Below, one piece after another: positions 9,203-12,263 of a DNA stretch of 12,362 bases (position 1 is its first letter; every line of letters begins with the position of its first letter). The notes beneath the pieces are model-generated. The model ran no database searches, was not told the DNA's origin, and worked only from the letters and a program-made list of their open reading frames with translations. The position numbers and the translations under genes are program-made. Location: positions 1 through 12,362 of the forward strand of contig CAXTTL010000143.1 of the NCBI GenBank assembly GCA_964247135.1, read 5' to 3'. The stretch comes from an uncultured Deinococcales bacterium. GTDB lineage: Bacteria; Deinococcota; Deinococci; Deinococcales; JAAFIG01.

Positions 9203-9246
9203 AATCAAAAATAAGAAAGGAACGCCTTTTAAAAGCGTTCCTTTCT
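9203..9246 (-). terminator. Intrinsic terminator of thrS, probably bidirectional (also tctC)
   Basis: Perfect 12-bp stem AGAAAGGAACGC (9214-9225) / GCGTTCCTTTCT (9235-9246) between convergent genes. On the minus strand it is followed by TATTTTTGATT. Confidence 0.85.
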
Positions 9247-9258
9247 GCGTTCAAAAAC

Positions 9259-11217
9259 TTAATTGCGTTGTTCGGCTCGGGTTTGAAGTTCGAGGATCAA
9301 ATCTGTTGTGCCCAGGATGCCTCGGTCACCTTTGCCGTGTTCGCGCACGCCAACCGAGTCGGCTGCCACTTCCTTGTCGCCAACCACCAAAATATATGGC
9401 ACTTTTTGCAGTTCGGCGCTGCGGATTTTGGCTTGCATCCGCTCCGAGGAATCATCGACCTCGACCCGCAATTTGGCGGCTTTCATGGTTTTTGCCAGAT
9501 CGTTGGCGTACTCGAGGTGACGGTCTGAGATCGGTACAATGATGGCTTGAACTGGCGCGAGCCAGACTGGAAAATTGCCCGCCGTGTGCTCGAGGTAGAG
9601 CGCAAAAAACCGGTCAAAACTGCCCATGATCGCACGGTGAATCACGACTGGCGTCTCTTTCTCGCCGCGCTCGTTGGTGAACTCGAGGTCAAAACGGCTC
9701 GGCACAATAAAGTCGAGTTGGTTGGTGGCAATCGATTCTTCCTTGCCGACCACGGTGCGCAGTTGAACATCGAGTTTTGGTCCGTAAAAGGTGGCTTCGC
9801 CGATGCCCTCGACGTAACTCGCACCCGTCTCCTCGAGTGCCGCGCGAATCGCGGCGATGCTTTCGTCCCACTGCGGTCCTGGCTCGCCAAATTTTTCGGG
9901 ATTGTTCTCAAAATCGGGCAGGGAGAGCCTGAACCAGTAATCAGAAATTCCAAAGTCGGTATAAACCTCTTTAAAGAGTTCGATTACCTTGATAAATTCG
10001 GCTTTGACTTGCGACTTGGAGCAGTAAATGTGCGCGTCATTTTGGGTAAAACCGCGAACCCGAGCCAAACCTGAAAGTGCGCCCGAAAGCTCGAAACGGT
10101 AGACCGTGCCAGCCTCGGCATAGCGCACGGGAAGGTCGCGGTAAGACTTTGGTCGAGCCGCAAAAATCATGTGGTGGTGCGGGCAGTTCATGGGTTTTAA
10201 ATAATAATTCTCGCCCTCAATCTCGATGGGGGCATACATGCCATCGCTGTAATAGGGCAAGTGACCGGACTTGTGATACAGCGCCTCTTTGGTGATGTGC
10301 GGCGAGATCACATAGTCGTATCCGTGTTCCTGTTCCTTTTGGAACATGTAATCCTCGAGGCGCTTCCTGACAAACGCGCCCTTGGGCAACCACAGCGGCA
10401 AACCCTGACCAACCTCGTCGGAAAAGGCGAACAAATCCAGTTCCTTGCCCAGCTTGCGGTGATCGCGCTTTTTGGCTTCCTCTTGCTGCCACAGGTAATG
10501 CTCGAGTTCCTGGGCGGTGTTGAACGCCACGCCGTAGACGCGTTGCAACATCGGATTTTTTTCCGAACCGCGCCAATACGCGCCGCTGGTGGCGGTCAGT
10601 TTAAAATGCGGCGGAATTAAACCCGTGCGCGGAATGTGCGGACCACGGCACAAATCGGTGAAATCTGCCTCCGAGCCTTGGCGGTAGAAGGTGATTGCTT
10701 CATTGTCGGGCAGCCCTTCGATCAATTCGGTCTTGTAACGGTCTTTGCCCTCAAACGTCGCCAGCGCCTGCGCCCGTGTGACTTCAAAGCGACTCAAGGG
10801 CAAATCTTTGGCAATAATTTCACGCATTTTGGCTTCGAGTTGCTCGAGTTCCTCAAGTTTCAGTGGTTCTGGCAAATCAAAATCGTAGTAAAAACCGTTC
10901 TCGATGACCGGACCGACACCCATTTTGATGCGGTCGCGGGCAAAACCTTTATTTTCGTACAACTCGAGGATCGCCTGCGCCATGACGTGCGCCAGCGTGT
11001 GCCGCGCCAGGTCAATCGCCTCGGCAGGTTTTTTGGTCGTGATGATTTCAAGCGTCGCGCCGTCGTGCAACGGTGTGAAAATATCGATCAGTTTGCCGTT
11101 GAGTTTTGCGCCAATCGCGTCTTTGGCGAGCCGAGGACCGATCAATGACGCGGCGTCAAAGGCATTCGCGCCGGCTGGAAGCTCGAGTTGCTTGCCGTCT
11201 GGAAGGGAAATAAACAT
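9259..11217 (-). CDS. thrS: Threonine--tRNA ligase
   Basis: 652 aa. TGS domain; editing motifs RHTLAHVMAQA and DLCRGPH; GAYWRG, RDHRKLGKELDLF, KPMNCPHH, FTQNDAH, FYGPKLD, IHRA, FPVWLAPVQ; anticodon-binding domain. SD GAGG at 11225-11228. Confidence 0.99.
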   Translation of the reverse strand: MFISLPDGKQLELPAGANAFDAASLIGPRLAKDAIGAKLNGKLIDIFTPLHDGATLEIITTKKPAEAIDLARHTLAHVMAQAILELYENKGFARDRIKMGVGPVIENGFYYDFDLPEPLKLEELEQLEAKMREIIAKDLPLSRFEVTRAQALATFEGKDRYKTELIEGLPDNEAITFYRQGSEADFTDLCRGPHIPRTGLIPPHFKLTATSGAYWRGSEKNPMLQRVYGVAFNTAQELEHYLWQQEEAKKRDHRKLGKELDLFAFSDEVGQGLPLWLPKGAFVRKRLEDYMFQKEQEHGYDYVISPHITKEALYHKSGHLPYYSDGMYAPIEIEGENYYLKPMNCPHHHMIFAARPKSYRDLPVRYAEAGTVYRFELSGALSGLARVRGFTQNDAHIYCSKSQVKAEFIKVIELFKEVYTDFGISDYWFRLSLPDFENNPEKFGEPGPQWDESIAAIRAALEETGASYVEGIGEATFYGPKLDVQLRTVVGKEESIATNQLDFIVPSRFDLEFTNERGEKETPVVIHRAIMGSFDRFFALYLEHTAGNFPVWLAPVQAIIVPISDRHLEYANDLAKTMKAAKLRVEVDDSSERMQAKIRSAELQKVPYILVVGDKEVAADSVGVREHGKGDRGILGTTDLILELQTRAEQRN

Positions 11218-11345
11218 GTGAAAACCTCAGTTTCTCGAGGGTGATTTGCTGCTGCTTGGGGTCAATATGTAGACCCAGACCGACATCTTTCAACACGCGC
11301 GAAATCAGACCCCCCAAGGGGTTCGCGTGGTGAATGCGGTCGTGC
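11218..11345 (-). promoter_or_regulatory. Candidate attenuator: alternative RNA pairings controlling the thrS SD
   Basis: SD hairpin CCTCG-agaaac-TGAGG followed by TTTT. Its 5' arm AAATCACCCTC (11237-11247) is also complementary to the leader stop region GGGGGT(CT)GATTT (11302-11314). Confidence 0.6.
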
Positions 11346-11370
11346 ACAAGAGGCTCGAGAGTTGTTTCAT
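11305..11370 (-). CDS. Putative Thr-rich leader peptide of thrS (MKQLSSLLCTTAFTTRTPWGV)
   Basis: ATG 11370 (alternative in-frame ATG 11397) to TGA 11305-11307. Five Thr codons lie within eight codons (ACG ACC GCA TTC ACC ACG CGA ACC). The ORF ends 87 nt upstream of thrS. Confidence 0.7.
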   Translation of the reverse strand: MKQLSSLLCTTAFTTRTPWGV

Positions 11371-11413
11371 GGTTTTTTTGAGGCACGGATACTTCATTCC
11401 GTGGCTTGATTGC

Positions 11414-11422
11414 AGTTTAGCA
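11414..11422 (-). promoter_or_regulatory. Extended -10 (TGcTAAACT) of the thrS leader transcript
   Basis: Minus strand reads gTGcTAAACTgcaatcaag, just upstream of the leader ORF. Confidence 0.55.
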
Positions 11423-11462
11423 CAAGCCGTCGTTTGGCTGAATCTGCCAAATGACGGCTTGT
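11422..11462. repeat. 17-bp near-perfect inverted repeat with 7-nt loop between divergent genes
   Basis: ACAAGCCGTCGTTTGGC-tgaatct-GCCAAATGACGGCTTGT, with one mismatch (G-T). Confidence 0.85.
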
Positions 11463-11504
11463 CGGGAACTTTCACGCGCCTTTGTCCGTATGATGTGACT
11501 GAGC

Positions 11505-12263
11505 ATGAATCCCAACAAATCCGCAAACAATCAAGCACAACCAATTGAACCACCCGAGCTTGAGGTATTCTCAAGCGATATGGCACGCCACCCGCACGCC
11601 GTAAAATCTGATCCGCTGGGCGCTCGAGGTCGTTTGATTTTTGGATTGCTGGTCGGTCTGACGGCAGGAACCATCAGTTTTTTCTCAGTCTCGAGTTCGG
11701 TTATTTTGAGTGTCATGATCGCCTGGGACGTCGGCACATTGTTTTTCTTGGGTTTGACGTGGCGGGTGATTTTTAAATCAAACGCAGACATGACCAAAGC
11801 CAGAGCCACCAGCGAAGACCCTGGGCGCTACGGGGTTTTTGTGATTGCCATCGGCTCGAGCCTGGTCAGTTTGTTCGCAGCGGTGTTTGTGCTGCACGGC
11901 AAAAAGGACATGGTCTCGGCGAATCTGGTCGGACTGCTGGATACCCTGGCGGTCGTCGCAGTCGTGCTTGCCTGGATCATGACGCATACCGCCTATGCCT
12001 TGCGTTACGCGCGGTTGTATTACAGTCCACGAAACGGCGATCCTGAAGCGGGTTTGAAATTTCCTGGCGATGAAGCCCCAGACGACCTGGATTTTGCCTA
12101 TTTTTCGTTTGTCTTGGGCATGGCATTTCAGGTGTCCGATGTTTCGATCACCTGCAAGCGCATTCGCAGGGCAGTCTTGTGGCACAGTTTGCAATCGTTT
12201 TTGTACAACACCGTCATCCTGGCGTTGTCGCTCAACTTGTTGTTCGGTTTGTTCAGCACTTGA
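11505..12263 (+). CDS. DUF1345 family integral membrane protein
   Basis: Several TM helices and the signature H..YALRYA..YY...GLKFPGDEAPD.LDFAYFSFVLGMAFQVSDVSIT...IRR.VL.HSL.SF.YNTVILAL.LN. The start is uncertain (11505 or 11580). TATGAT lies at 11489-11494. Confidence 0.88.
   Translation: MNPNKSANNQAQPIEPPELEVFSSDMARHPHAVKSDPLGARGRLIFGLLVGLTAGTISFFSVSSSVILSVMIAWDVGTLFFLGLTWRVIFKSNADMTKARATSEDPGRYGVFVIAIGSSLVSLFAAVFVLHGKKDMVSANLVGLLDTLAVVAVVLAWIMTHTAYALRYARLYYSPRNGDPEAGLKFPGDEAPDDLDFAYFSFVLGMAFQVSDVSITCKRIRRAVLWHSLQSFLYNTVILALSLNLLFGLFST

Follow-up and report, generated by a model that had tools for sequence, protein, structure and literature searches.

The threonyl-tRNA synthetase (ThrRS) gene thrS carried by a contig from an uncultured Deinococcales bacterium (CAXTTL010000143.1, assembly GCA_964247135.1), whose whole analysed stretch of 12,362 nucleotides (nt) is called the window in what follows, is preceded by a short upstream open reading frame (uORF) rich in threonine codons, and this leader is probably a ribosome-mediated leader-peptide attenuator of thrS, the counterpart of the thrS leader peptide predicted in Deinococcus deserti. 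Comparison with relatives at the sequence level confirms that the Thr-codon leader peptide is real, conserved and not a product of chance, and its most likely role is to tune ThrRS to the supply of charged threonine tRNA. thrS occupies 9259..11217 on the minus strand (ATG at 11217) and codes for a 652-amino-acid product, identified as ThrRS with the backing of the Pfam domains TGS, tRNA_SAD, tRNA-synt_2b (the class-II core) and HGTP_anticodon; the uORF lies 87 nt upstream of it.

A 21-codon Thr-rich uORF directly upstream of thrS had been proposed in the first-pass annotation of the window, and all of its coordinates are correct (Table 1). Clusters of this kind are rare in the genome to which the window belongs (5.09 Mb, 52.7% G+C), where 50 ATG-initiated open reading frames (ORFs) of 8-45 codons with at least five Thr in eight codons are found in 10.18 million strand-bases; this corresponds to about one per 204 kb of strand, and the expectation for the 290 nt upstream of thrS is about 0.0014. 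Six other Thr-rich short ORFs of the same genome were inspected and showed no obvious promoter and no threonine-related downstream gene. The 30-residue variant of the peptide, offered as an alternative in the same annotation, did not hold up: its start (ATG 11397) is not conserved, being GTG in the related leader L003 and ACG in L004. A second small ORF, from ATG 11286 to TGA 11227, which ends within the Shine-Dalgarno sequence (SD) of thrS, was also rejected (ACG in place of the start in L002 and L004, an early stop in L003).

Conservation was followed in thrS upstream regions taken from 40 of the 41 genomes of a search for relatives. The genome left out (G018) is 57% complete and lacks the N-terminus of thrS; G017 is represented by its contig C135 and G010 by contig C526, the other G010 copy being excluded with an upstream sequence of only 64 nt. 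When a uORF is required to have 8-60 codons, TT or TxT within its last ten codons and an end 15-270 nt before thrS, a qualifying frame is present in 32 of the 40 regions (two of them, L021 and L023, doubtful) versus 2 of 40 reverse-complement controls, and the Thr-codon uORF, whose alignment across relatives had been suggested as a check, is thus conserved. It is found in 17 of 18 regions of the window's own family (f1), in 6 of 6 of family f3 (six loci of genus g7, Deinococcus-like by the resemblance of their leader peptides to D. deserti Deide_06409), in 4 of 5 of f4, in 4 of 6 of f2 (including the two doubtful cases) and in 1 of 5 of f5. Within the window's genus, represented by six sequences, alignment gaps measure 3 or 6 nt inside the uORF and 1, 1, 1-5 and 1 nt past its stop codon; gaps are therefore in frame inside the uORF and not beyond it, a coding signature. 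The Thr codons keep AC and vary at the third base (G, C or U), and their number reaches 13 of 30 codons in L009.

Two genera are among the departures from this pattern. thrS appears to be leaderless in the Thermus-like genus g9 (L173, L175 and L176), with a -10 element (TATAGT) seven bases before the ATG and no uORF in any of the three genomes. In one g2 genome (L159, from G010:C526, a genome that contains two thrS pieces on different contigs), 248 nt separate the leader motif from thrS; the other, L007 (G006:C610), lacks the motif and has a GC-rich repeat element upstream of thrS.

The most constant part of the leader is a Thr-Arg-Thr core, ACN-CGA-ACN, present in 17 f1, six f3 and two f2 leaders (ACG CGA ACC at 11328-11320 in the window). 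In the f1 leaders with a uORF, the six Deinococcus-like leaders and the two f2 leaders, this core is followed by a GC hairpin and by the stop codon 3-10 codons further on, the spacing being 4 codons in most leaders of the window's family. In 16 of 19 genomes of that family, the degenerate 25-mer ACNCGAACSCCN4GGSGTNTRAT has a single occurrence, upstream of thrS wherever the flank is known, and the pattern read backwards has none; a strict motif scan of metagenome contigs gave no match. In all 19 tabulated leaders (the window and 18 relatives' loci), CGA is the Arg codon enclosed by the two Thr codons. Its share among the Arg codons of the thrS genes themselves is 0-25% (mean 10%), with 0 of 49 and 0 of 48 in those of two genus-g7 loci. 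Base pairing or slow decoding may explain this invariance; GAA:UUC or CGA:UCG pairs are found in most leaders, with a partner that differs by lineage.

The Thr-Arg-Thr codons are at the same time the 5' strand of a hairpin, helix A (composed of the stems P4 and P5), which had been described in the first-pass annotation, lies where it was placed and is kept across the whole family. In it, CGCGAA-CCCC (11327-11318) pairs with GGGG (11313-11310) and UUCGCG (11303-11298), and all cells are paired in the six genus sequences, with one change from G-C to G-U. Across genera, the partner of the Thr segment shifts in step with it (ACG-CGA with UCGCG, ACC-ACC with GGUGGGU, ACU-CGA with UCGAGU). The mean energy of the native duplexes is -16.3 kcal/mol versus -12.5 with the partners of other genera, and no foreign partner equals the native one in 10 of 16 leaders (L015, identical there to L013, was excluded); in the six genus leaders, shuffles match the native energy in 0.3-2.7% of trials. 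In minimum-energy folds and in the alifold consensus, the entire uORF supplies the 5' arm of a long, imperfect hairpin (the rod of Table 1). All six genus leaders and five of the six Deinococcus leaders have this hairpin as their minimum-energy fold. Over the genus sequences the model is 97% paired, one pair being compensatory (C-G to G-C in L002). Helix A, for which covariation had been anticipated, is paired throughout the genus; the long hairpin, with that single compensatory pair, does not exceed shuffled controls (see below).

If ThrRS or another protein bound the leader as an untranslated RNA operator, in the manner of Escherichia coli thrS, and the ORF were incidental, the invariance of the ACNCGAAC core at the nucleotide level, rare CGA codon included, and the conserved P4/P5 hairpin would be accounted for. 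Nevertheless, this explanation is very improbable: indels keep the reading frame, start and stop codons are conserved, Thr codons are as numerous as in L009, and the D. deserti transcription start, in the published map discussed below, falls on the leader ATG. Moreover, the hairpin loops (UUGG, UCGG, UUGC, UCGC, GCGC and others) contain no conserved anticodon-like NGU.

Table 1. Features of the thrS leader and its surroundings (positions of the window)
Feature	Position	Strand	Remarks
Leader ORF, 21 codons plus TGA, peptide MKQLSSLLCTTAFTTRTPWGV	11305..11370 (ATG 11370, TGA 11305)	minus	from the sequence and the alignment of relatives
Sensor codons 10-17, ACG ACC GCA TTC ACC ACG CGA ACC	11320..11343	minus	T T A F T T R T, five Thr in eight
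Helix A: P4 (CGCGAA:UUCGCG) and P5 (CCCC:GGGG)	11298..11327	minus	stop codon in the 3' part
P1, UCUCGAG with CUCGAGA	11360-54 with 11239-33	minus	two CTCGAG copies
P2	11350-44 with 11255-49	minus	rod helix
P3	11342-39 with 11284-81	minus	rod helix
P6, side hairpin GGGUC:GACCC	11259..11276 (11276-72 with 11263-59)	minus	loop variable in length and sequence; 3' arm also the partner in helix D
Rod 5' arms, UCUCGAG (codons 4-6) and CUUGUGC (codons 7-9)	11344..11360	minus	GAGCCUC here can pair with the thrS SD
Rod 3' arms, GCAGCAG and CUCGAGA	11233..11255	minus	includes AAAUCACCCUC, helix B partner and anti-SD
Helix B	11314-11302 with 11247-11237	minus	94% paired in the genus
Hairpin C, CCUCG(agaaac)UGAGG	11225..11240	minus	5 pairs, -5.3 kcal/mol; holds the SD GAGG, then UUUU
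Helix D	11318-11312 with 11261-11255	minus	only the GGGG:CCCC part kept in the genus
SD of thrS, GAGG	11225-11228	minus	followed by UUUU (11224-11221) and the thrS ATG (11217)
Extended -10, TGcTAAACT	11414..11422	minus	read in the sequence; predicted transcription start ~11407
Hairpin of the 5' untranslated region, CACGGA/UCCGUG, then an A-rich stretch	11384..11403	minus	arms kept in 5 of 6 genus sequences, loop variable
Intrinsic terminator 3' of thrS, 15-bp stem and T-run	9214..9246	minus	canonical; the genome's terminator exemplar

The output step of the leader differs among lineages. When a terminator is required to have 5 or more stem pairs, a loop length of 3-8 and a run of eight bases with at least 5 T, there is no terminator-like site between 10900 and 11800 of the window, and a hairpin with a T-run is found in none of the six genus leaders. 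All five f4 leaders have such a structure, as a separate hairpin immediately ahead of the SD; it is also present in L024, L026 and L022, and P5 qualifies weakly in two leaders of genus g5. In Deinococcus, a U-rich tail follows the long hairpin or a 3:4 hairpin, and five of the six leaders have this tail after the long hairpin with the Thr codons in its 5' arm. In family f4 and in the Deinococcus leaders the output is transcription termination. The same genome has canonical terminators at the 3' end of thrS and in the leaders of tyrS, cysS and a class-II Asx-tRNA synthetase gene, so that the absence of a terminator is specific to the thrS leader. This absence is the main argument by which a translational output is favoured, and control of translation initiation is tentatively assigned as the output in the window's genus. 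In agreement with the ribosome-binding site being the target, when the last 87 nt of the leader and 15 nt of thrS are folded alone, the window's SD is unpaired with a probability of 0.085, and in 10 of 15 family leaders the value does not exceed 0.19. For comparison, 1674 SD-bearing gene starts of the same genome (thrS stands outside this control set and was computed separately) give a median of 0.30, with the lower quartile at 0.19 and the tenth percentile at 0.034. By this calculation, the thrS ribosome-binding site is predicted to be more occluded than usual in the window's genome.

It is rather unlikely that the leader of the window is a classical transcription attenuator, in which UUUU (11224-11221) and either hairpin C or the base of the long hairpin would make up a weak intrinsic terminator whose formation is prevented by stalling at Thr codons. 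The terminators of the orthologous leaders just named (all five of f4, L024, L026 and L022), the U-rich tails at the ends of the Deinococcus leaders and the terminator-based leaders of other aminoacyl-tRNA synthetase genes in the window's genome point in that direction, as does the ratio of about 27 between leader and thrS reads in D. deserti (20537 and 755 in the supplement of PMC4007540). On the other hand, hairpin C is a poor terminator stem, with its 5 pairs and -5.3 kcal/mol compared with the 15 pairs of the terminator 3' of thrS, the base of the long hairpin stops 8 nt short of the U-run, and two terminator scans found nothing in the six genus leaders. The UUUU need not be a terminator tail at all, because tyrS and cysS also have a U-rich spacer after their SD.

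Several leaders with terminators have features of their own. In L026 (G019), 78-56 nt before thrS, the hairpin that follows Thr-Arg-Thr and is equivalent to P5 is a terminator-like GC stem with a U-run, and this U-run contains the stop codon of the uORF (GGG CGC UUU UAA), so the leader ORF traverses its own terminator. In the window's genome, the minus strand of contig C67 carries a gene of the tRNA-synt_1b family (PF00579, Trp/Tyr; match C67:19025-19858), named tyrS here from the Tyr-Tyr codons of its leader; the leader ORF MSNQTRYYFPKTFLV, with Tyr-Tyr after ACC CGA, lies 111-63 nt before the chosen gene start, and the terminator GCCCCGAccacUCGGGGC with its U-run lies just before the SD. The cysS gene on the minus strand of C31 (match C31:21900-22826) has a near-leaderless leader ORF, MSDPRVTLHSCCDRP, with Cys-Cys, and a terminator before the SD whose arms are two CTCGAG copies (GCUCGAGacuuaacCUCGAGC followed by U6). 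On the minus strand of C26, a class-II (PF00152) synthetase gene (match C26:6737-7675) has the leader ORF VMVTALTRNNRNDDDH, with an Asn/Asp run, and the terminator CCCGCACcacaccGUGCGGG followed by U7; this leader resembles in type that of the aspartate-tRNA ligase of D. deserti, as far as the published description goes.

In the attenuation mechanism proposed here for thrS, scarcity of charged tRNA-Thr would make a ribosome stall on the Thr codons of the uORF, and a second ribosome may queue behind it; the stalled and queued ribosomes would hold the long hairpin open, its 3' arm would refold and ThrRS output would rise. In the window's genus, the 3' arm would act through the anti-SD and CTCGAG segments that it bears beside the thrS ribosome-binding site. 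The first-pass annotation had gone further and described a switch of mutually exclusive helices (A, B and C, with D as an additional pairing) that frees the SD when the ribosome stalls. Helix B was correctly positioned and is contained in the minimum-energy fold of the window's leader when a 28-nt ribosome footprint is placed on Thr codon 14 or 15, but in none of 16 leaders does it, or its analogue, exceed composition-matched shuffles in stability (shuffles that equal or surpass it make up a fraction of 0.15-0.42 in the genus and of 0.41-0.98 outside it); its single variable pair is a mismatch in four of the six sequences, G-C in one and A-U in one. Helix C (11240-11237 with 11228-11225) is also where it was said to be, but it is a short hairpin on a CTCGAG copy that weakens to U-G or mismatch in the other five genus sequences. 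The position of helix D is right too, but only its GGGG:CCCC part has been kept. All three are compatible with the six genus sequences, yet they do not rise above shuffle controls.

Folding under ribosome footprints was carried out for 14 leaders (L015, L009 and L159, with an ambiguous start or a long leader, were omitted). In the window's leader, the SD has an unpaired probability of 0.48 without ribosomes and of 0.47 with a ribosome on the stop codon; with a queue (everything 5' of the stall masked) it takes values of 0.43, 0.29 and 0.04 for stalls at codons 14, 15 and 17, respectively, and it is 0.06 when the uORF and stop region are fully masked. In genera g4, g5 and g3, the ribosome-free leaders have a closed SD (0.00-0.08). 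Stalling opens it in L010 and L012, a queue does so in L006, and in the other leaders of these genera it stays closed. The pairing of a CCUCA of the 5' untranslated region with the SD, seen in the fold of the window, was discarded as a candidate element, this CCUCA being confined to L001 and L002. The freeing of the SD upon stalling by the three helices is a hypothesis, and no single switch model is borne out by the folding calculations.

A number of results weigh against the proposed mechanism. A single stalled ribosome lowers the unpaired probability of the SD in the window's leader to 0.08-0.13; with the footprint on codon 14 or 15 the SD pairs with GAGCCUC of uORF codons 5-7; the expected direction of switching is seen in only three of the six genus leaders (L001, L003 and L004), and over all leaders the predicted accessibility of the SD has no single switching direction. 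The duplex of the Thr segment beats shuffles only in the six genus leaders and in L008; it is no better than shuffles or foreign partners in genus g5 and in both g3 leaders, and in the latter two the native duplex is worse than foreign ones. Column shuffles reach the observed value of the long hairpin in 173 of 500 cases, because the six sequences are too alike (83% mean column identity). Besides, the hexamer CTCGAG, of which the thrS leader has two copies (11354-11359 and 11234-11239), is found 56 times in the window versus 2.1 expected and 33,925 times in the genome. Any pair of copies can anneal, and each contains CUC, complementary to the GAG of an SD; with one copy per 150 bp genome-wide, pairings between them arise by chance. 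Finally, the uORF start has no SD ahead of it and a predicted 37-nt 5' leader, unlike the leaderless version of Deinococcus, and a promoter-like match, TTGAAA-18-CATATT (11264-11293, minus strand), lies between the uORF and thrS.

This last match is one of the points in favour of the uORF being an inherited remnant that no longer regulates in the window's genus, with constitutive expression of thrS, either on the same transcript or driven by an internal promoter. The lack of a terminator in the genus leaders and the fairly open ribosome-free SD (0.27-0.48) would fit such a state, and leader loss does happen, as the three g9 genomes without a uORF and the g2 genome without the motif demonstrate. 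There is little probability in this explanation, however, given that the leader is strongly conserved in all six genus genomes (Thr codons, reading frame and 3' region) and that the promoter-like match, with its -10 in the P6 loop, which varies, lacks conservation in the genus.

Rho-dependent attenuation has similarly low standing and is improbable. It would make the C-rich, G-poor segment 11262-11237 (ACCCCAAGCAGCAGCAAAUCACCCUC) a Rho loading site, exposed when the uORF is translated normally and masked by helices B and D upon a Thr stall. The composition of this segment is suitable, it is the most conserved non-coding part of the leader in the genus, and helices B and D both target it; yet the stretch is short (about 26 nt) and helix B, as stated above, is no better than chance. 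No precedent for Rho-dependent attenuation in this phylum is known, no literature search having been aimed at it.

Returning to ribosome-mediated attenuation with a translational output, the peculiarities of the window's genus could be joined in a single account, doubtful as a whole, in which the ancestral threonine attenuator of thrS lost its terminator in this Deinococcales family and became translational. Queued and stalled ribosomes would unzip a hairpin of about 130 nt with anti-SD segments in its 3' arm, beside the thrS ribosome-binding site. The pairing segments would be the CTCGAG copies, two in the window's genus and three in g5 (the last of which overlaps the SD), so that an RNA switch would have taken its pairing elements from a DNA word spread genome-wide; the rare and invariant CGA flanked by the sensing Thr codons would slow decoding and in this way sharpen the sensor.

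Upstream of the uORF, the extended -10 element claimed in the first pass is present; it was not listed by a promoter consensus scan because it has no -35 match. TGnTA(A/G/C)A(C/A)T is found at the equivalent place in leaders of the window's family. In the window, this -10 lies 43 nt before the ATG of the uORF, and in genus g5 a GTG or ATG follows it after 7-10 nt. A gene of the DUF1345 family, starting at 11505, is divergent from thrS, with an intervening spacer of 287 nt. This spacer contains a 10-bp inverted repeat, ACAAGCCGTC...GACGGCTTGT (11422-11431 and 11453-11462), located upstream of and reaching into the extended -10, which may be an operator; in the region 11422-11462, Rfam matches are at chance level only. 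A search of sequencing runs for 10800-11520 listed 16 DNA runs, each with a share of 0.08 or less, and no RNA run.

The control of aminoacyl-tRNA synthetase genes outside E. coli and Firmicutes is poorly charted. The mechanism considered here is a textbook one that has already been predicted in the same order, and what is left of interest is that the genus lacks a terminator, that the rare CGA codon never changes and that CTCGAG copies are used for pairing. At least three Deinococcales families have retained one and the same thrS leader peptide, built around Thr-Arg(CGA)-Thr, which the Thermus-like genus g9 has lost outright; the output module of this leader has been exchanged repeatedly (a hairpin with a U-run, a long hairpin with a U-rich tail, or an occluded ribosome-binding site without a terminator). 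This set of leaders is a natural series for the study of how attenuators change their expression platform, and the uORF is itself a small gene that annotation pipelines miss. No account of the order-wide conservation, of the Thr-Arg(CGA)-Thr core or of the exchange of output modules was found in full-text searches of the literature (subscription journals lie outside this coverage), and the thrS leader case is not treated in the accessible text of Naville and Gautheret (2010; PMC2965389) and Korolev et al. (2016; PMC4833913).

Among well-known systems, the pheM-pheST and thrL-thrABC leaders of E. coli encode peptides with cognate codons in a row, the row coincides in part with the first strand of the alternative hairpins, and a canonical intrinsic terminator stands at the end; in pheST the leader-peptide principle serves a synthetase operon. 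The window's thrS leader differs from them in having no such terminator; it has no Rfam match either. The same gene is controlled, with the same physiological purpose, by an operator that mimics the anticodon arm of tRNA-Thr in E. coli and by T-box leaders in Firmicutes. Neither is evident here, as had been said in the first pass: T-box (RF00230) and Thr_leader (RF00506) have no match in the whole window at the gathering score or in 11100-11600 at E up to 10, where the only Rfam hits are at chance level and far below threshold (SNORD47, mir-1791, M23, MAT2A_B and PreQ1), the loci of 10 relatives contain no T-box, Thr_leader or other Rfam family, and by inspection the variable loops of P5 and P6 have no conserved anticodon-like NGU. 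A comparative paper by Lopatovskaya, Seliverstov and Lyubetsky from 2010 reportedly deals with attenuation in synthetase operons and may bear on the thrS leader.

The further claim that thrS would be under a different control mode has to be withdrawn: control of thrS by a leader peptide is not new, because it has been predicted in D. deserti (Deide_06409; PMC4007540) and reported in Streptomyces lividans (thrL; PMC8079986). De Groot et al. (2014) mapped the transcription starts of D. deserti and annotated 14 leaderless leader peptides, among them that of thrS (Deide_06409 in their Table S9), for which differential RNA sequencing places the start on the A of the leader ATG; in the accessible parts of that work, the function of the leader is predicted from sequence and start mapping only, without mutational tests (PMC4007540). 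Judging from the published annotation, Deide_06409 and the window's uORF agree in the gene, the order and a short ORF that ends a few codons after Thr-Arg-Thr, and in Deinococcus and the window alike a long hairpin has this ORF as its 5' arm. In the six genus-g7 loci, with peptides that resemble Deide_06409, the core reads ACG CGA ACT. The two versions differ in that the Deinococcus one, as described, has a 33-residue peptide with two Thr, a leaderless mRNA and a U-rich tail after the hairpin, whereas that of the window has 21 residues, five Thr, a predicted 5' leader of about 37 nt and no terminator. In S. lividans TK24, thrL precedes thrS (Droste et al., 2021, Table 4; PMC8079986) and, according to the available description, it shares with the window Thr codons in a leader before thrS and a hairpin without a U-rich terminator; it belongs to another phylum, has two Thr codons and no Thr-Arg-Thr core, and is leaderless. 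The polycysteine short ORFs of mycobacteria, also from another phylum, sense cysteine and, in what is published of them, control metabolic operons and not a synthetase gene; nevertheless, ribosomes that stall in these Cys-rich leaderless ORFs release a ribosome-binding site from sequestration (Canestrari et al., 2020; bioRxiv 10.1101/834739), and this mechanism, which is experimental there and inferred here, is the one favoured for the thrS leader of the window.

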